DNA of 64,000 nt, taken from NCBI GenBank assembly GCA_963693055.1, contig OY843751.1, forward strand, positions 4,320,001-4,384,000. Direction: 5' to 3'. Below, piece by piece: positions 49,116 through 62,885 of this stretch. Within the stretch, counting starts at the first letter, position 1. Each line of letters begins with the position of its first letter. A model generated the notes under the pieces. That model searched no databases. It saw nothing but the letters and a program-made list of their open reading frames with translations, and had not been told where the DNA came from. Both the position numbers and the translations under genes were made by a program. The DNA is from a bacterium (GTDB lineage: Bacteria > Zhuqueibacterota > Zhuqueibacteria > Residuimicrobiales > Krinioviventaceae).

Positions 49116-50051
49116 TTATTTTTCATTAGCCCTGGGATGGGCCTGCTTATAGATACGTTTCAAATGTTCGGCTGAAACATGTGTGTAAATCTCTGTAGTC
49201 CCTAAATTTGCATGGCCCAACAATTCTTTAACAGACATTAAATCTGCTCCTGAATCTAACAAGTGGGTTGCAAATGTATGCCGCAATGAATGCGGATGCG
49301 CTTTTTCTGTATCTGCTACTTTTTTAATATAATTTTGAACAATTGTTGCGACTTGCTGTCTGGTAAATGGCTCCTTTTCCTCTTTAACAAATAAATAGCG
49401 GTTATATTCCGGCTTTACAGACGCTTGCACTTCAATTTGCTGTAAATACCGGCGTATATCCTCAATTACTATACCGGGCAGGGGTAAAACTCTTTTTTTA
49501 TTACCTTTACCTAATACGGTGAGTGTGCCGTTATTCAAGTTCACATCACTTGTTTTGATATTGATCAACTCACTTACGCGGATGCCTGTAGCATAAAACA
49601 ACTCTAGTATCAAATAATCCCGCAATCCCTCAAAAGTTTCAACATCCGGTAAACTCAACAATGCCTTTATTTCCGATTTTGTCATAAATGATGGCAGCTT
49701 TTTATCCAGCTTGGGAGAAGCAATGTTAGCAACAGGATTTGCCTCAAGCACTCCCTTTCTAACCAAATACCGGGAAAACATCCGTAACGCGGAAAGTTTT
49801 CTGCTGGTACTACGTGCCGTATATTTTTCTTTCAATAATTCAGACAAAAAACCCCGTACCACAGACTTGGTCAAGTGATCTGTTGCAAAAAGTTCGTCCG
49901 TTTGATAACGCTTCTTTAAAAAACTGACATAATGATTCAAATCACGTCTATATGCTGCAATTGTATTTGCAGAACTGCGTCTTTCAACTTCAAGGTGTTG
50001 TAAAAATTGCGGGATCCAGTTTTCTAATTTTTCTTTTTCCATCGTCATCAC
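49116..50051 (-). CDS. xerC: tyrosine recombinase XerC/XerD
   Basis: YATGIRVSEL, GKGNKKR, HSLRHTFATH, LLGH, TEIY. Confidence 0.88.
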   Translation of the reverse strand: MMTMEKEKLENWIPQFLQHLEVERRSSANTIAAYRRDLNHYVSFLKKRYQTDELFATDHLTKSVVRGFLSELLKEKYTARSTSRKLSALRMFSRYLVRKGVLEANPVANIASPKLDKKLPSFMTKSEIKALLSLPDVETFEGLRDYLILELFYATGIRVSELINIKTSDVNLNNGTLTVLGKGNKKRVLPLPGIVIEDIRRYLQQIEVQASVKPEYNRYLFVKEEKEPFTRQQVATIVQNYIKKVADTEKAHPHSLRHTFATHLLDSGADLMSVKELLGHANLGTTEIYTHVSAEHLKRIYKQAHPRANEK

Positions 50052-52231
50052 TTTTCGCTGATCACCGAAATAAACTGGTCATCGTATAGATGATTACATT
50101 TAGGGCATTGATAGCCTTTGTGGTCCTCTGTCAAATCGTGTTCGACAAGATACCGGTTGCCGCAATTACGGCACAACATATTTACCGGTTTTTTCCACGC
50201 GGCAAAAGAACAATCAGGATACCTGCTGCATCCGTAAAACAATCGTCCTTTTGATTGCCTTTCTACTACTTTGCCGTCACATCCGTCAACAGGGCAAGAG
50301 ATGTTGAGTGTGTAGGCTTTGGTAAAATCACATTTAGGATACCGGGTGCAAGCCAGAAACCTTCCATATTGTCCCTCTCTGACTGTTAGCGGTGCTCCAC
50401 AGATCTCACATATTTCTTTTTCTTCTTTATTATCAGCCTTATATATATAAACGCAGCTTGCAGGGTAATGTTCACAAATTATTTTATTATCGTCACCGTG
50501 TAGCAATTTGCCTCCGCACAACGGACAAGCACTTTTCCCATCTGCGCCAATTGTTACAGGGGCTTGAACAGAACCACCATGTTCAAAAAGTTTACTGTAA
50601 CTGTTTATAAACACCTCTATTGTTTGTTTACCAGACGCCACAGTTCGGATCGAATTATCCAGCTGCAAAACTATACCGGTATTGATATAGCCTGAATACT
50701 TTAATAACAAGGCATTTATGGCATAAAATCCCTTCGCTGAAGGATAAAGTCCGGATCTCTTTCGTTCAAGCATTTGAATTGCAAAAAGCATGCCCGAATG
50801 ATATAAATATTCATAAATAGAACCTGTCCCGGATGCCAGCCACAAGTGCAGCATTTCAGGCTCTGAATATCTATTTGATATTTCGGATTGATGGGTTTGA
50901 ATGTCAAAATCTACAACCTCAAGCTCCTTACCCGTGTTCCAGGTATCTGGTATTTTTACAACCTCACGAACATTAGATTTTTCAGGAAGAACCTGTCGAA
51001 AGCCCCGAAACAGGTCTGTTTCATACTCGTACTCGCAAATACAAGGGTCTTCTTTATCATCACTGACAGAGATTGTAGTAATCTCTGAAACGGATTTTGA
51101 CATTTGTGAAGCAATATAACGATGCCAAATCATAGAATAGATGTCATATTGCTGCTCGGTAAGGTGCTTTTTCAGTTTGCGTGGAGTCATCCGCAAATCA
51201 AGGGGACGTATAGCTTCCCCTTCCGGATGATGACGGTTTTGCTTATATGCGCTTTGCGGTAGGTAATCTGTTCCATAATTGTTATAAATATATTCCCGAA
51301 GCTCTGCAATACTTTCGGGCTTTACAAAATCGGAAACTGAAAGATAATACGTTATCAAGCTAATGGGCTCATCGCCCCCCATTCTCACACCTTTGTACAA
51401 TTTATCAAGAATCTTGACGCTATGGGCTACAGAGTGCTTGAAAAACTCCTGGGCATCTGCCAACAAGGTCTGCGTTGTATAGGGCTTTGGGGGTGGTGTT
51501 TGGTTTTGCCGGGTTTGAATATTTCGGATCTTAAACTCACCATTCTTGACTTGTGATACCATGGCTTTTGCAAGCTGTACATTTCGCACATCCTGCTCTT
51601 CTTTACCAATTTTAACAATCTGAAAATCTAGATTCTTTTTCCCTCTGACCTTGAAACGTACTGAAATTTGATAATGGCGGTGTACCTTTTCGCTTTCAAC
51701 CTCGGTCTCTTTTTCATATAAAAAGCGTAAAAGCAGGGCCTGCTTAATGTGGGTAAGCTCTTTTATCCCCTTAACGGCTTTTATTTTTAAAAACTCGTTG
51801 TGCAATAAACGGTTTGCCCAATAATCCGCGCATTCCGCATAAAACAAATCCGGAGTTACTGCTTTGATCTTTTTCAATTCATTGTTCAAAAACAGGGCCG
51901 TATTCTGATACATTTTGACTCTGACGATCTTTTTATAAGTACCGTCAAACAATAACGCAAGTAATCCCGCTAAAAAATCACTATCATTCCCAGGATCCAC
52001 AACCAGAACAATTGTATGAAAAGCTTGAGCAAAATCAAAAAGGGGGTTGAATATATCTAATGCCGATTCAAGCAACCGGACGGATGAATTCGAAAAATCA
52101 ACATTCTGTTGAATAAATTCATTACGATTTATTTTTTTCAAAAACTTGTAATCTTGAAAAACCGTAAATCCATTTATTGTCAACAGATCATAGCGATTTT
52201 TAGAATCAACTACAACAAGCGTTTTTTGCAT
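50048..52231 (-). CDS. topA: type IA topoisomerase (TopA)-like protein with degenerate catalytic motifs and intact C-terminal zinc ribbons
   Basis: PPKPYTT, LITY, EAIRP, IWHRYIASQM, GRFLACTRYPKC, FYGCSRYPDC; smg-topA-xerC synteny. Confidence 0.8.
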   Translation of the reverse strand: MQKTLVVVDSKNRYDLLTINGFTVFQDYKFLKKINRNEFIQQNVDFSNSSVRLLESALDIFNPLFDFAQAFHTIVLVVDPGNDSDFLAGLLALLFDGTYKKIVRVKMYQNTALFLNNELKKIKAVTPDLFYAECADYWANRLLHNEFLKIKAVKGIKELTHIKQALLLRFLYEKETEVESEKVHRHYQISVRFKVRGKKNLDFQIVKIGKEEQDVRNVQLAKAMVSQVKNGEFKIRNIQTRQNQTPPPKPYTTQTLLADAQEFFKHSVAHSVKILDKLYKGVRMGGDEPISLITYYLSVSDFVKPESIAELREYIYNNYGTDYLPQSAYKQNRHHPEGEAIRPLDLRMTPRKLKKHLTEQQYDIYSMIWHRYIASQMSKSVSEITTISVSDDKEDPCICEYEYETDLFRGFRQVLPEKSNVREVVKIPDTWNTGKELEVVDFDIQTHQSEISNRYSEPEMLHLWLASGTGSIYEYLYHSGMLFAIQMLERKRSGLYPSAKGFYAINALLLKYSGYINTGIVLQLDNSIRTVASGKQTIEVFINSYSKLFEHGGSVQAPVTIGADGKSACPLCGGKLLHGDDNKIICEHYPASCVYIYKADNKEEKEICEICGAPLTVREGQYGRFLACTRYPKCDFTKAYTLNISCPVDGCDGKVVERQSKGRLFYGCSRYPDCSFAAWKKPVNMLCRNCGNRYLVEHDLTEDHKGYQCPKCNHLYDDQFISVISEK

Positions 52232-52271: not shown

Positions 52272-52739
52272 TCAGTGTGGCAGCATGTTGGAATTAAACT
52301 GGAAATAACCATCAGAAGCACTGTTTTCAAAATCCAATACTACCGCGGCAATTAAATCCTGCATTTCTTTAACATCAATACTTGCAAGTTGTAAACTTAC
52401 TGCGCGCTCTATGATCAGCTCCATCATATCGTCAGTAACCAGTTCCAGTTCACGTAATTGAAACAGGTACCCATACGCCTCGGGAGAGATTATCTCTTTT
52501 TCAATCTCATTCAACTCTCTCCAGATCGGCCGGGGAATATCCGAAGGATGCCCTTTTATGATCCGGTCTATACTTTCCCCATGGTTTAACAACCAGGACA
52601 TGGCCGTAGAGATTTCTTCATCACTAAAGCCCTGTTCCGATAATATATCTAAAATCAATTGTAAGTCTATTTCTCCAAAAGCGTTGTCACGAATCTCTTT
52701 CATCACAAAACTCAGGATATCCAAAAACCTTTTGTTCAT
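52272..52739 (-). CDS. smg: Smg/DUF494 family protein
   Basis: GFSDEEISTAMSWL, ISPEAYGYL, ELIIERA; upstream of topA. Confidence 0.75.
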   Translation of the reverse strand: MNKRFLDILSFVMKEIRDNAFGEIDLQLILDILSEQGFSDEEISTAMSWLLNHGESIDRIIKGHPSDIPRPIWRELNEIEKEIISPEAYGYLFQLRELELVTDDMMELIIERAVSLQLASIDVKEMQDLIAAVVLDFENSASDGYFQFNSNMLPH

Positions 52740-52910: not shown

Positions 52911-55900
52911 TTAATTGCCTTTGCCACAGCAATTTTTATATTTTTTTCCACTTCCACAGGGACAAGGCTCGTTTCTACCAACTTTATTGGTATTAATCAC
53001 CTGACGTTGCTTTCCTGCCGGACGTCCCGGTGTGGGCTGGGCCTGTGCTTTACCTTTTGGTGGAGCCATTACCTGTTTAAACAGTTCTACCTGAGAATGA
53101 GAAGTAGATACCTTTTGCGGTTCAGAACGTCTCATTTCCCGCTCTTCAAGCTCACCGCCAACATCCAGTACGCGGAAAAGAGTGCTTACAATATCTCTGT
53201 TTGTACTGTCAATCATTTTCACAAACATTTTATAAGCTTCACTCTTGTACTCGATCAATGGATCTTTTTGTCCGTAACCACGCAAACCAATACCTTCACG
53301 CAGCTCATCAACACCACTCAAATGCTGACGCCAGTTTTCATCGATTTTTTCAAGGATATAATACCGCTCGTATCTGGCTACCATAGATTCGCCAATCTCA
53401 TCCACACGGCGGCGGTAAATGCTTTGCGCCCAACTACTCAGCGTATTCATCACCGTATTGGGATCCATTGCCTCACCGCTTTCATCATGCAGGCGTGGTG
53501 ATTGTCTGAATACCAGACGGCATTCCGATTCCAAACGACGAATCTGGGTTGCATCAAGATCGTCATTATTACCCAGCACACCGCTAATCATTTGATAGAT
53601 TGTATCATCAATCATGGTTAATACAGAATCAAAAACAATATCTGTACTAAGCCGCTCCTGATGGTAACGCTCAACCCGGTCTGCATAGGTCTTGTAGAAA
53701 CTTAAACCCCATGCAACCAGTTCTTCACGATAAGAGTTTAATGCTTCACGCTCACGAGATGCCGGTAGAATCTTGTCCGGTTTACCCATAAACATATTCT
53801 GAAAACTTGATGCCAGCAATTGTTGTGTTGATTCGGCATCTTTATTTTCTTTGATTACATTTTCAAACCGTGCTATAATTGAAGATTCTATCAATTCTTC
53901 AATGGATGTATTGGCAAGCAACAATTGGTTATATACGGTAATATTTTCTCGCAAGTGTTCCAAATAGGTATTTCTTGCCCACCGCATTGTCTGGCTAACA
54001 AGGTCAGGCCAGTCTTTTAATGCCTCAGCAGGTTTAAATGCTTCTCCAAATACACTCTGCAAAAACTCTGCCTGTTTTTCTTCCAGTTCCAAAACATCAC
54101 GGCTATGATATGCCGATGCCTGTATAAAACTATGTTCAACCACTGCATTAATATATTGTACAGATGAAAAATAACCCAGAATTCGGTTCCGGTACAACAT
54201 TTCATCTTTACCAGCAATTGCCAGGCCGTCAAGCCATTCCTGAACTTTTTTTATAACTTTTTCACGTCGAATGGTGCGCATTTCATTTTCACCAATGGGA
54301 GGACGCTGCATAAATATCTTTTCCAGATCACTCAAAAAGTTTTCCGAATTCCAGGTTGCCGCTGGCGCGTCAATTGGTAAATGACGGTTAACCAAACCAT
54401 TTACATAAATTTCCAGAAAAGTGTTCAACGGAATGGTTTTAAAAAGAATACTATCTATTGCTTTTTGCCCGTTTTCTACCTGAGAATTATAAACAGATGC
54501 AGCCCATTCTTTTAACCTTGATTCAAAAACATCAGCAGTATCAATATTGCTATTCTCAAGCCAATCTGGTTTCTGCTCAAAAATACGCTCCATCTCATAA
54601 CCAATGCCCGAGATATTCCATTTTGAAATATCTCGGGTACCAGCGTTATGCAGTCTTATTTTCAACAATACCAGCTCATCTATAATATCTTGAATATTAC
54701 AATACCCGGTAATACGGTGACGCTCCTGCATTTGATAGAGGTGGCGCTGTTCTTTCAACTTTTCATCAACCCAGGTTCTCAAAGTCTCCCGAACACCACT
54801 AACATCCTGGCTTTCAAGTTCAGATTTGGTAAAATCAGGTTCTGCACCAAAATACCGTTTCAGATTTTCAAACAATTCATCCAGTTTCCAGGTTGAACGA
54901 TCATCTTCTTCATCAATAAAGCGTTTGATCTTGGCTTCTACAAAATCTTCCGGCTGTGCAAAACCCAGCAGGTTTTGTCGTCGTTTATATATAATCTTTC
55001 TTTGTTCATTCAATACGTCATCATAATCCAGCAAATGCTTACGAATTTCAAAGTTGCGTTCTTCAACTTTTTTCTGAGCGCGTTCAATGGATTTTGTGAT
55101 CATAGAGTGCTCAATGCGCTCTCCCTCATCCATACTGCCTAAACGACTCATAATATTTGTAATGCGGTCAGAACCAAACAGACGCATGAGATCATCTTCC
55201 AATGACAGATAAAAACGTGAAGAACCCGGATCTCCCTGACGTCCCGCACGACCACGTAACTGCCGGTCAATTCGGCGGGCTTCATGCTTTTCAGAACCAA
55301 TGATCTGTAAACCACCTTTTTCAATTACATCTCTGGTAAGCTTGATATCCGTACCACGACCCGCCATATTGGTCGCAATGGTTATGGATCCCGGTAGACC
55401 TGCTTTGGCAACAATTTCAGCTTCGTTTTTATGATATTTGGCATTCAATACCGTATGAAAGCGTCCCGATTCCAGCTCTTTGGTAACATCACCCTTTTTC
55501 AGCCAGTTGGCAACAGGAATACCGCGCTGGGTAAACAAATTACTCAGATGCTGAGAAACATCAACGGAAACCGTACCAATCAGAACCGGTAGTCCTTTTT
55601 CATGATACTCTATGGTATCTTTAATGATTGCATCATACTTTTCAGCCTTTGTTCGATAGATCACATCATTCATATCATCACGAATAACCGGCCTATTGGT
55701 TGGCGCAACAATAACATCCAGGTTGTAGGTACTGTAAAATTCCTGCGCTTCTGTTTCGGCAGTACCAGTCATACCTGCCAGTTTATTATATAATCTAAAG
55801 AAATTCTGCAATGTAATGGTAGCCAGTGTCTGGCTTTCTGCCTGCACTTCTACACCTTCTTTAGCTTCCAACGCTTCATGCAAACCGTCACTAAAACGGC

Positions 55901-58900
55901 GTCCCGGCATTAAACGACCGGTAAACTGATCAACAATCATAACCGCTTTATTACCACGTTTTGCACCGGTACGTCTTAATTCATTGTCTTCCACTGCCTT
56001 GACCACATACTCGACATCATTATGATACAATGTATATGCCCGCAGCAACTGGGATATATTTTGCACGCGTTCTTCCACGTGGTTATAATCCTGCCAGATC
56101 TTGTCTCGCTGTTGTTCCAGCATTACCCGTGGACGACGTTCAAAATGGATACGGAACCAGTGTTCAATCTCTTCATTACGCATTACAAAATTCGGCATAT
56201 GTGCGTTAGACAGCAATTCAGTCATCTCGCGATCATCCAAAACAATATGACGTGAACGTAAATGCGTTTTTTCTTTTGGAAGCAAGCCTTGCAGCTCTGC
56301 CCGACTGCCGGCTTTTTTGGTACTTAGCTGCATAATCTCATCACGAAAACTCTGATACTCGTCCCGGTAATTGAAATAAGGTAATCCGCCAATCAACAAA
56401 GTACGGGCAGCTTTTTCAATGCCTTTGGGTATTTTATTTTCATCCAAAACAAACAATGCATCAACATCCACATTCGGATCGCTTGCAGCTTCTTTTAATT
56501 TATCTACAACCTGACTGCGCTCAAAAAACAGACCCTGCAAATTCTTGCGGCCGTTTTCAGTCAATCCTGTAATATTGACAGTCTTAAAAACGGGGTCCTC
56601 CGGATGCAAGGTACCACTAAACTGGAAATACCTGCGAAGCCAGCGCTGGCGCTCTGTAAGGGTTTGATCAGTATCTGCCAGGTTTGTAAAAATCATCTGT
56701 ATCGTTTCATTGAGGCGCTCAACCTCTTCAAACCGACGTGAAGCACTGATAATCTCTGCAGGCAAGTTGAATTTATCCTGCAGATGTGCATCCAGCTTTA
56801 GCTTGTTAGACAGTTCATTTTTACCGGTATCACGGCTCCAGGATTTAATTTCTTTATCTACATCGGCAAAATTCGCGCCCATCAAGCGTTCCAATTCAGC
56901 GTCTGCCAATCCGGCCACATGTCCATTCGCTTCAGTTTTAAAAATAGCCTCGGGCTTGTCTTTATAATCACCCAGATGTTTTTCAAAGTGACGTATTACG
57001 GTTTTACTTTCACTACTGAAATTTGAAAGGCATTCAACACCCAGGGAGGTTATATCAAACCTGCCGGTTTCCATAACATAAAAATCATTATTTTTAGGAT
57101 CTTCAAGGGTTTGAATATGTTCATAAAGTGCTGTTACATCTCTATCCATATCTTCTACAGCAAGAACATGAGCAGAATAATCATAATCTGCCTGGTTCAA
57201 AGTATCATCCAACTGCTTTTGGATCTGCTGGTCACGTTCTTCAACCAGGGTTCTGTCAGGCAGTACATACAGATCAGGATTACCACCAAGCAGAGCAATA
57301 CGGCCTTTTTCAGTAATTTGATTTAAAACAGCGCCATTGTCTTTTAACTCGAAATATTCCTGCTTGATATTTTCAATAGAGGTTAAATCTTGCGTTGAGG
57401 CAGGATTAAGAAGCGCAATCAATCCATTAACAGTAGGCAGCAGCATAGGATCGCCAGATTTTTGCATAGCCAATACCGCCAGTTTACCTTCTTGGGTCAA
57501 ACCGGTAATTGCGCCAAACTGTTTTTCAGTTTCAAAAAAGACGTCGGTTAATTCTCTTCTTCTGTCAACAAGCGGACGCTTCATAACCGGTTCAGCATCT
57601 ACGTCTGCTTCTTCTCGCACCATATCTAAAAGCTTTACAAAAGCATCTACAATAGCTTCATCATATTTACCGTTTGCATTGGATTTCAGAAAATCAATTC
57701 CCGTAGATGACATGCTGTTTACAGCCCTGTCCATCTTTTTGGTCATACCATAAAACTGCCGCCATACAGAGGCCTTGTCACCTTTATTATTTTGCAAACG
57801 AGTATTAATTTCTTCAGGTAAATTATTCAATTGAAGAGAAAGCTGCTCAATGGGTTCAAATTCAGACTCGGTAACCCCGGATTGTATACCAATAAGCGCG
57901 GCTTTACCCGCAAGAGTCAATCCGTTACAGGTACCGGTAATGGAATCATGTGTAAAATAGATGGAACGGTTCTTTTGCTCGCTGATTTTCTCAAGCGTTG
58001 CGCTCAATACATCCAGTTTTTGAATTTTATGAACAATATCCTGGTCGCGGCCGCCCGAGAGGAAAATACGTCCCTTTTCGGTAATATCTATAACATGGCT
58101 CTTTTCATCAATGGTGAAATACAAATCCGCATCAACTTCACCCATTTGCTTGTTTACTTCATATTGGCCCTGAATTCGTTCAATCAATTTCTTGACCCAA
58201 AATTCCGAAGTCAGCAGTTCCAACAGTTCTTTGTTTTTAGGATCTCCACGATGGACCTGAAGAATTTTGATTCCTGCTTGTTCTTCATCGTTCTCGAGCA
58301 ACTCTTTGCCTTCACGCAACAGTTGTTGCACCAGCTCGTTCTGTCGTTTAGCCAGGTTCTCTACAGTGGGTTTTAATTCTTTATAAATATTCTTGGGTGC
58401 TCCAACAGCTCCCGATATAATCAATGGTGTTCTGGCTTCATCAATCAAAACACTGTCCACTTCATCTACAATTGCGTAATGTAAGGGTCGCTGCACAACA
58501 GACCAAACATCCTGAGACATATTATCACGCAAATAATCAAATCCAAATTCGTTATTGGTACCATACGTAATATCCGCATGATAAGCCGCGCGGCGTTCTT
58601 CTGGAGATTGATCTCCAAAAATTGCAGCTACCGTTAATCCCAAAAACTTGTAAATTTCGCCCATCCATTCACAGTCACGTTGGGCCAGATAATCATTAAC
58701 AGTGATAAGATGCACACCCTTGCCTTCTAACGCATTCAGATACAAAGGCATAGAGGCTACAAGGGTTTTACCTTCACCTGTTGCCATTTCAGCAATTTTC
58801 CCATCATGCAGTATCATACCACCCAATATCTGCACATCATAAGGAATCATGTCCCATTCTATTTCCTGCCCGCGAACCATCCATTTTTTACCGCGCAACC

Positions 58901-59141
58901 GTCTACAGGTATCTTTAACAACGGCAAAAGCTTCGGGTAAAATATCATCAAGGGTTTCCCCCATACGTAATCTATATTTAAACTCGTTGGTTTTCGCTTT
59001 TAATTCATCATCAGATAGATGCTCATATTCTTTTGCATAGTCATTCACCGTAGCAACTAATGGCTCTAACCGTTTAACTTCACGTTCGGTGCTTGTGCCT
59101 CCCATAACTTTGGAAAGCATTTTTTCAATAGACTTTAACAT
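52911..59141 (-). CDS. secA: giant preprotein translocase SecA (2076 aa)
   Basis: [69 protein letters not shown]-terminal [19 protein letters not shown]. Confidence 0.97.
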
Positions 59142-59308
59142 TTACAAAATCCTCGTTTATCAAATCTATAAATAATTATACCGGCAATACTTATATGTAT
59201 ACAAACAACACAAGTTTCAAATTTAATGGATTTTAGGCTAAAAATCCAGCAAATTAATTACGCCGGTATTATTTAAATTGGCTGTTATCAAATTAGAGCA
59301 TGGTGGGG

Positions 59309-59830
59309 TTAAGCGGGTAAATCCTGTTTGTCCAGGCATCCTCTACCGGTTTTTTGAATTTTATTGTTCTTTTTCAAACTTTCATAAACAGCATCCAAAA
59401 TCCCGTTAATAAAACCACCGCTCTTGTCCGTACTATACAACTTGGACAGTTCAATCGCTTCATCAATGGAAACTTTGGGGGGGATATCATTAAAATTCAT
59501 AAACTCACAGATCGCAATACGCATAATAATGCGATCAATAATAGCAATACGCTCGAACTTCCAATTGGTAGAATGGTCTCTAATGTTTTGGTCCAAAACT
59601 TCCCTTTGATCAAAAGTTTGACGAATCAATTGTTTTGTAAACTGGGTAATTGTATTATCTACAACATCTTTGCCCAAAACCAGGGTCAAAACCTGTAAAA
59701 CAGAATTACCAGAGAGTTCCAGTGCATATAAACCCTGTAAAGCTGTCTCTCTGGCTTTTCTACGACTTGCGGGGGGTGAAATTAATTCAATTTCATCATT
59801 ATTTTCAATAAACATGGTATAAAAGAACAC
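59309..59830 (-). CDS. nusB: transcription antitermination factor NusB
   Basis: RRKARETALQGLY, DRIIMR, VSIDEAIELSK, FINGILD; true start may be slightly downstream. Confidence 0.93.
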   Translation of the reverse strand: MFFYTMFIENNDEIELISPPASRRKARETALQGLYALELSGNSVLQVLTLVLGKDVVDNTITQFTKQLIRQTFDQREVLDQNIRDHSTNWKFERIAIIDRIIMRIAICEFMNFNDIPPKVSIDEAIELSKLYSTDKSGGFINGILDAVYESLKKNNKIQKTGRGCLDKQDLPA

Positions 59831-62526: not shown

Positions 62527-62885
62527 ATACAAAGCAGGTCATAAGCCGAATTCTGTTATCCGCAAATGCGGATCGATGATCATTTATCTGGGATGGCGAT
62601 TGCCCGCCACCTCAAGCGACCTACCCGAGAGTCAAACGAGACGGGCCGCCTCTTCTCTCCTATTTGGTCTTGCTCCGAATGGGGTTTACCCTGCCCCCGA
62701 TGTCACCAACGGGGCGGTGAGCTCTTACCTCGCCATTTCACCTTTGCCCCAAAGGGCTGTATATTTTCTGTGGCACTTTCCCTGCTTCACAACAGGTCCG
62801 CGTTACGGACCATTCTGCCCTGTGGAGTTCGGACTTTCCTCATCCCGCAAAATTGCGGAACGCGATCACCTGCCCTGCTTTGTAT
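62527..62885 (-). ncRNA. rnpB: RNase P RNA (type A)
   Basis: The minus strand carries GAGGAAAGTCCGAACT, AGTGCCACAGAAA, GGTAAACCCC and ACAGAATTCGGCTTA; the P1 ends ACAAAGCAGG/CCTGCTTTGT pair. Confidence 0.96.

Follow-up and report, generated by a model that had tools for sequence, protein, structure and literature searches.

A giant SecA with amplified preprotein-binding and wing domains, retained across one bacterial order

A SecA of 2076 amino acids (aa), where canonical proteins have about 840-900 aa, raises the question of what the additional residues are, how they arose and what they may do. The gene in question, secA, lies at 52911-59141 on the minus strand of a 64,000-nucleotide stretch of bacterial DNA (the window; contig OY843751.1, positions 4,320,001-4,384,000), within which all coordinates below are counted, and every part of the gene shares its strand. 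The source genome is 6.5 Mb in one contig and 100% complete, and a check for a second secA found none, so the giant is its only secA. An initial annotation, made from the letters alone, had described intact motor motifs, a zinc-binding tail and about nine repeated modules in the preprotein-binding domain (PPXD), and had proposed a multivalent translocase arising from joint expansion of PPXD and wing. The open reading frame and its Pfam matches agree with the described size, motifs and tail, and the joint expansion is borne out by the nine PPXD modules and six wings set out below.

Domain anatomy of the giant SecA

The encoded protein is, by every feature examined, a housekeeping SecA rather than a SecA2 or an intein host. 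It passes the housekeeping cut-offs of NCBIfam, with 909 bits for TIGR00963 (cut-off 800) and 973 for PRK12904 (cut-off 814), while it falls below all four SecA2 families (TIGR03714, TIGR04397, TIGR04221 and NF012136); it shares the ATPase core of SecA2 but is the sole copy and sits at the housekeeping locus. The long-SecA family PRK12901 (NF009536) is likewise not reached, with 1095.7 of the 1493 bits of its cut-off, and the sister protein L033 also remains below it, with 1326.6. Pfam families follow in the usual order of SecA_DEAD, SecA_PP_bind, P-loop_SecA, SecA_SW and SEC-C, with PF07517 and PF21090 on the nucleotide-binding domains (NBDs), PF01043 at aa 1020-1092 and PF07516 on the scaffold and wing. 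The best sequence matches are canonical SecAs (Bacillus subtilis 1tf2, 1m6n and 3jv2; Escherichia coli 2fsf and 2vda), which share the domain order NBD1, PPXD, NBD2, scaffold, wing, two-helix finger and zinc tail, and whose C-domain geometry is alike in prediction. The difference is one of size, for about 760 residues lie between the aligned PPXD flanks, compared with about 40 in B. subtilis, and the wing region holds about 450 extra; the alignment to B. subtilis SecA is broken at aa 267-1028 and aa 1443-1894.

The protein has its motor motifs as well as its zinc tail. NBD1 (aa 1-245; 58407-59141) carries Walker A at aa 119-126 and the DEAD-like sequence DEVD at aa 226-229, and NBD2 (aa 1130-1340; 55122-55754) carries motif VI at aa 1294-1303. 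The PPXD is inserted in NBD1, and the N-terminal half of the PPXD can be aligned to sister SecAs, a set of 18 proteins from KSB1/Zhuqueibacterota (L033-L050, in frames of 1037-1145 aa). It opens with a helical segment (aa 255-335; 58137-58379) that is common to the sister-lineage SecAs and absent from the B. subtilis alignment, and it ends with its native C-terminal part and the clamp loop (aa 1016-1100; 55842-56096). Two small inserts, one of 16 aa in the clamp hairpin (55944-55991) and one of 19 aa in NBD2 (55458-55514), recur with conserved sequence among the giants but occur in none of the 18 sister SecAs; conversely, the giants lack the insertions that the sisters have in NBD1 and NBD2. 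Toward the C-terminus, Pfam, the B. subtilis alignment and the C-domain model locate the two-helix finger and the C-terminal part of the scaffold (aa 1921-1995; 53157-53381), which are followed by the SEC-C zinc-binding tail (aa 2056-2074; 52920-52976; PF02810, E 9e-9). As a separate observation, the best fold match of the helical segment (aa 260-324; 58170-58364) is Tom20 (2v1s), with a Z score of 7.5 and a root-mean-square deviation (rmsd) of 2.8 over 63 of 66 residues, a score at the background level for small helical bundles and hence a lead only. Tom20 is the mitochondrial presequence receptor.

The neighbourhood of the gene is ordinary. On the same strand, nusB (59309-59830) lies upstream and a DUF494 gene (52272-52739), presumably Smg-like, lies downstream, both of which also flank secA genes of normal size; nusB adjoins secA in 30 of 30 giant loci, and nusB and/or DUF494 adjoin it in 18 of 18 sister-lineage loci. 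Since the nusB-secA-DUF494 locus is the same as that of the sisters, the giant gene is an ordinary secA altered in place.

The additional residues of the PPXD are a tandem amplification of its native module, in nine copies. In the 18 sister SecAs the domain holds a single unit, consisting of a hairpin, a helix, an NP-x-LF-x-LPD loop and two helices; one module and one wing in the sisters stand against nine and six in the giant. The PPXD spans 822-868 aa in 45 full-length giants, compared with 211-215 aa in 18 of 18 sister-lineage SecAs, a net gain of about 630 aa. Between the end of ITEKG at aa 357 and the start of [13 protein letters not shown] at aa 1024, 666 aa were counted, where about 665 had been estimated, and all nine motifs quoted in the initial annotation were located, starting at aa 341, 395, 463, 535, 596, 687, 733, 838 and 896 (window 58121 down to 56406).

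In the giant profile, a profile built on the sister unit finds matches at aa 330-386 (P 2e-17), aa 596-670 (P 2e-6) and aa 988-1030 (P 2e-4, the native end), the only three matches to exceed the top score of the shuffled controls (31.4); weaker matches lie at aa 462-539 (P 0.004), aa 683-729 (P 0.01) and aa 533-602 (P 0.08). Homology to the sister module is thus direct for M1 and M5 and weak for M3, M6 and M4, while M2, M7, M8 and M9 are tied to it through other modules. When module profiles were compared with one another, 38 of 72 ordered pairs, nearly all in register, outscored every one of 189 control comparisons (maximum 19.1), and all nine modules joined one network. Because the module windows had been picked on the motif, a blind window scan was also run, in which 61 of 435 non-overlapping pairs scored higher than any of 217 reversed controls (maximum 18.0), almost all of them on the same nine sites. 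M6, M7 and M9 are the weakest copies. A single-sequence BLASTP self-comparison of the protein did not reveal the repeat, nor can it be seen in the DNA.

M1 (aa 341-394; 57960-58121) is the native hairpin-helix, and M5 (aa 596-686; 57084-57356) is highly conserved and keeps the native loop as NPDLYVLPD. M3 (aa 463-534; 57540-57755) and M4 (aa 535-595; 57357-57539) are recognised by the sister profile, the module-pair profiles, AlphaFold and the blind scan, and M6 (aa 687-732; 56946-57083) by the first three of these. The module-pair profiles, AlphaFold and the blind scan support M2 (aa 395-462; 57756-57959), M7 (aa 733-837; 56631-56945) and M8 (aa 838-895; 56457-56630), and together with conservation they support M9 and the conserved helical return that follows it (aa 896-1015; 56097-56456). 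An AlphaFold model of aa 234-1120, built from 61 sequences (mean predicted local distance difference test score, pLDDT, 79; predicted template modelling score, pTM, 0.59), shows, at each of the nine modules, two strands paired in a beta-hairpin and then a helix, each copy being predicted to keep its fold. What recurs among the modules is an aromatic strand residue and a helix start of the form G-L-T-x-x-G, while the DEK tip is complete only in M1.

The wing was amplified as well, into an array of six copies (W1-W6, aa 1393-1920; 53382-54965) supported by profiles and by the C-domain model: W1 at 54702-54965, W2 at 54438-54701, W3 at 54177-54437, W4 at 53916-54176, W5 at 53637-53915 and W6 at 53382-53636. 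The array spans 556-566 aa in 45 giant proteins. A profile of the sister wing matches in four places, at aa 1396, 1482, 1571 and 1831 (P<=2e-5), and the blind scan links all six units, although W4 and W5 do not rise above control when compared with the sister wing directly. The links of W1 with W3, the strongest (P 5e-13), and of W2 with W4, the next, suggest that a two-unit block was duplicated. The model of aa 1312-1995 (pLDDT 87.5, pTM 0.81) has six helical units and superposes on B. subtilis SecA (3jv2) with a Z score of 19.1 and an rmsd of 2.1 over 175 residues, across the insert, so that canonical geometry is predicted for the scaffold, one wing and the two-helix finger. Stand-alone copies of the PPXD module or the wing were found nowhere else in the genome.

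Distribution, descent and constraint

All but one of the 43 genomes from the window's order match the insert (aa 360-1015), the 42 matches covering five families, and the exception (G090) is 78% complete. Outside the order, two of 124 genomes of the phylum, a tally that includes the unpublished G158 and G162 on neither of which any claim depends, match the native loop motif weakly (E about 9e-4). Among the matches listed outside the order, the SecAs are mostly open frames of about 1010-1180 aa, and a further 102 SecA matches stand beyond those listed. Two records that carry the insert, RBG_16_48_16 and DPZ2_202101_bins_149, are labelled KSB1, o__UBA2214 in entries of the supplement to PMC11683472, where a genome with the o__UBA2214 label is also placed in Residuimicrobiales; because both labelled records carry the insert, the order is likely KSB1 o__UBA2214, Residuimicrobiales.

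Wider searches led to the same group of proteins. The insert profile found seven matches among 1.84 billion cluster representatives, all of them giants or apparent pieces of giants, while a search with aa 255-1040 returned 47 proteins, of which 44 have 2049-2111 aa and three are fragments, with identities of 41-57% save one at 95%. No intermediate copy number or trimmed form was found in the best 120 of 8000 scored SecAs (1141-3633 aa); no search with a sister query was made for independently lengthened SecAs of more than 1840 aa, and giants may exist in other phyla. One candidate for an intermediate form, P0058, was rejected, for it contains an exact internal duplication and looks like an assembly artefact; another long protein, P0061, is likely lengthened by an artefact, running out of frame into a PF01134 protein.

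Several side observations concern SecAs of other lengths. Other long SecAs (P0064, P0065, P0070, P0073, P0082, P0083, P0093-P0095 and P0100) have insertions at the same PPXD site, giving spans of 320-388 compared with about 212-226. Those that were listed are helical stretches with no second module, and the independent occurrence of insertions at one site suggests an insertion-tolerant tip. Second, shorter SecA-like genes occur in four of the 43 genomes of the order (G089:C5, G090:C22, G092:C166 and G084:C23, the last being L051), at 795-856 aa with one distant copy of 934 aa, and similar frames of 810-825 aa occur outside the order in G059, G139 and G142. In the five-contig assembly G089 (L052:3328-3417), which also has an 856-aa SecA-like frame, the giant secA is split near aa 770-799 into frames of 804 and 1324 aa, through either an assembly error or a real frameshift.

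In a quick tree of 14 of the 30 giant loci, the giants form one clade (Shimodaira-Hasegawa-like approximate likelihood ratio test 99) on a stem that is long even in the core, at 1.24 substitutions per site. The tree supports a single clade of giants and, with the attachment of L051 flagged as a long-branch join, does not fix its exact sister. Between 30 giants and 18 sisters, 26 otherwise fixed core positions differ and 357 are shared.

Across the order the expanded arrays have been kept under purifying selection at near-constant length. The ratio of nonsynonymous to synonymous substitution rates (dN/dS) amounts to 0.05-0.28 for the inserts, against 0-0.09 for the core, measured in all ten pairs above 80% identity among the 30 loci, pairs that are not independent of one another. 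Conservation is uneven within the PPXD array, where the frequency of the majority residue ranges from 0.43 to 0.79 by module and peaks at M1, at M5 and after M9; around M5 and after M9 the array is nearly as conserved as the core, and these stretches contain invariant charged residues.

Possible roles of the amplified domains

The anatomy and distribution of the giant SecA are firm, and its function is inferred from them. According to passages of PMC5963308, substrate has its site between PPXD and NBD2 and the signal sequence lies where PPXD faces the wing; the PPXD is described, there and in passages of PMC11711467, as swinging from the wing to NBD2 in the course of the cycle. A wide-open state, according to part of bioRxiv 10.1101/2021.01.18.427065, is stabilised by contacts of the PPXD with the wing and the C-tail and partly restricts the signal-peptide cleft. 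The statement of the initial annotation that the PPXD clamps the substrate and touches the wing finds its footing in PMC5963308 and the bioRxiv account. The amplified pair is therefore the pair that lines the groove and touches at rest.

The reading we tentatively prefer, at a little short of an even chance, is that of a canonical motor whose PPXD and wing have grown rigid extensions, likely forming an enlarged gate around the signal-peptide groove. The duplications would have arisen once, in the stem of the order, after which each copy would have become a part of one superstructure, specific to its position, instead of one in a series of identical binding sites. ATP would be hydrolysed and the chain pushed through SecYEG as in any SecA, while the extensions would most likely enlarge the resting contact between PPXD and wing, reset the opening of the clamp and shield the entering chain, since the two domains touch at rest and line the signal-sequence site. 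Both domains were expanded in the same lineage, alongside the two small conserved inserts in clamp and NBD2, and the frozen spans, the module-specific conservation and the changes in core and inserts argue that the arrays are one rebuilt superstructure, not exchangeable beads.

A number of points weigh against this gate. The two arrays were modelled separately and the models give no relative placement, and the ends of the PPXD model, which include the native C-terminal part, have a pLDDT below 50. Both arrays are net acidic, at -2.8 to -5.5 charges per 100 aa, which argues against a simple electrostatic contact, and purifying selection alone speaks for constraint, not for a new function. In addition, the 887-residue PPXD model gave no Foldseek match at E<=0.001 and, in the VIA wide search, no chain at Z>=8 and no SecA among 50 rows, although a model of this size is too large for single-module matches and a weak or absent fold match says nothing on its fold. 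Single modules, too short or too diverged, did not retrieve SecA from the PDB sequences, and against Pfam none of the nine PPXD modules and one of the six wings (E 0.026) gave a match. The insert profile found two chance-level matches among the PDB sequences, and the ESM Atlas search gave no usable match. Because the fold and sequence searches missed SecA, the identity of the modules with the PPXD rests on the sister profiles and the predicted secondary structure.

Alternatively, the additional PPXD modules could bind unfolded preprotein as a multivalent holdase, making SecA its own chaperone for very long exports, a possibility that we consider unlikely but worth weighing. It draws on the fact that the amplified unit belongs to the domain that clamps the substrate, and on the absence of any secB match in the genome, an absence that is uninformative because the family was recognised in only four of 14 control genomes, with the Bacteroides control not among these four, and sister orders were not searched. 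The export load is also heavy, with 81 open reading frames of at least 1200 aa, and many of the 70 listed start, as judged by eye, with a signal-peptide-like stretch. Genomes of the order also have a somewhat higher density of candidates for the PF18962 secretion tail (median 37.6 per Mb over 32 genomes, range 26-62; counts of 108-370) than the rest of the class (median 28.2 per Mb, range 13-44, 54 genomes with G158 left out; counts of 49-326), yet these are first-look candidates and a rough proxy, with overlapping ranges among kin that are not independent. Because the ranges overlap, the load is not peculiar to the giant-SecA lineage. Furthermore, the copies mainly keep structural residues, namely the aromatic and G-L-T-x-x-G positions, and mostly not the DEK tip of M1; copy number is constant; the PPXD inserts are no more hydrophobic (fraction 0.29-0.31) than the NBDs (0.31-0.36); and trigger factor is retained in the order, being present in 86 of 87 genomes of the class. 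Of the earlier proposal, the amplification of PPXD and wing therefore holds, while multivalency and a chaperone capacity for large exports are weakened. Bolder still, and slightly less probable, is the idea of a cage over SecYEG, formed by the closing of the nine clamp modules and the six wings, in which very long preproteins would be captured and held while unfolded; a single polypeptide would then be both motor and chaperone chamber.

It is rather improbable that the arrays brought no new function at all. On this account, drift in the stem lineage fixed a burst of tandem duplication at two surfaces that tolerate insertions, after which the copies packed on each other and could not be lost, adding nothing to export. 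Unrelated insertions at the same PPXD site, with spans of 320-388, occur in 10 of 69 non-giant proteins listed, the stem branch is long even in the core, and dN/dS rises several-fold from core to inserts. The partner genes examined, too, are of normal size: secY, secG, secD and secF are present in the genome (secE was not searched), and in the 87 class genomes, inside and outside the order, SecY frames mostly have 444-502 aa and SecD frames mostly 680-725 aa, a few being cut by contig ends or longer. In the source genome (G000), SecF, identified by its place after secD, has 303 aa, YidC 611, SecG 130, Ffh 441 and FtsY 309. No expansion matching that of SecA was found in SecY, SecD, SecF, SecG, YidC, Ffh or FtsY, contrary to what the initial annotation had entertained for SecY and SecDF. 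Such an account is opposed by the retention of about 1060 extra residues across five families, in 42 of the order's 43 genomes, the searches having turned up no trimmed form, by the near-core conservation and invariant charged residues of M5 and the stretch after M9, and by the expansion of two separate domains in one lineage.

Still less probable is a docking platform, in which the arrays would bind a further partner: another SecA protomer, the ribosome, lipids of the membrane or a factor specific to the order. An RHR-x-G motif that recurs along the wing array and basic patches conserved after M9 would suit such a role, and SecA is described, in passages of PMC6620043 and PMC5963308 respectively, as binding ribosomes and as dimerising. 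No candidate partner emerged, however, from the ordinary nusB-secA-DUF494 neighbourhood or the normal-sized Sec components; order-specific genes were not screened.

An artefact or a removable insert, whether assembly duplication, intein or foreign mobile domain, is so improbable that it can be set aside: beyond the unusual size, the split frames of G089 and the precedent of exact duplication in the unrelated P0058, nothing speaks for it, and 44 full-length homologues of 2049-2111 aa come from several sources. Assembly duplication was rejected because single contigs span the insert, with no differences, in three runs of one sample, possibly the source sample. A contig of 9318 bases from a second study also spans window positions 53305-59300; it shows 453 differences, yet the open reading frame is free of gaps. 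No RNA run was listed among the sequencing runs that carry the sequence. A DNA repeat search found no long repeat, only short and mostly two-copy matches, which accords with the earlier judgement that the copies are too diverged for a duplication in assembly. Intein hosts likewise carry a large in-frame insert in a conserved gene, but here the insert is the host's own module, is fixed across the order and has no splice junction; no H-N/Q-C/S/T junction occurs anywhere in the giant SecA and no Hint or endonuclease match was found in any of 30 inserts, as had been supposed from the lack of an intein signature. A foreign domain was rejected in the same way, for no Pfam family rises above its cut-off in 30 of 30 inserts, and the GC content of the insert, overall and at third codon positions, matches the rest of the gene.

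Neighbouring features and meaning for the family

Two further features of the window stand apart from secA. Two genes downstream of it, at 50048-52231 on the minus strand, a TopA-like gene of 727 aa lacks the Toprim DxDREGE and YMRTD motifs, while an intact topA of 889 aa lies elsewhere in the genome (G000:C1:4503294-4505960). The syntenic TopA has both motifs in five of five sister-order loci and lacks both in five of five further readable loci of the order, two more loci not having been parsed. In some families this gene was shortened or could not be found, and a second topA of about 870-990 aa occurs in many of the order's genomes. This looks like an order-wide replacement of topA with a retained degenerate paralogue. 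Additionally, a class A RNase P RNA lies at 62527-62881 on the minus strand (Rfam RF00010, 299 bits), and the two plus-strand open reading frames over it are likely spurious.

The giant SecA is apparently an undescribed, order-wide variant of a core machine. The belief of the initial annotation that the architecture was new agrees with a search of the open-access literature, subscription journals lying outside it, in which no description was found; the word SecA does not occur in the main text of PMC11683472. The insert provides a clean marker for the order. SecA is a highly conserved machine. Since its PPXD must move in each cycle, about 630 extra residues there, together with six wings, put models of clamp motion to the test and make the giant SecA natural material on the roles of the PPXD tip and the wing, while the large arrays could mark the SecA cycle in cryo-electron microscopy or atomic force microscopy. 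If the arrays do hold substrate, the order would possess a translocase with its own chaperone.

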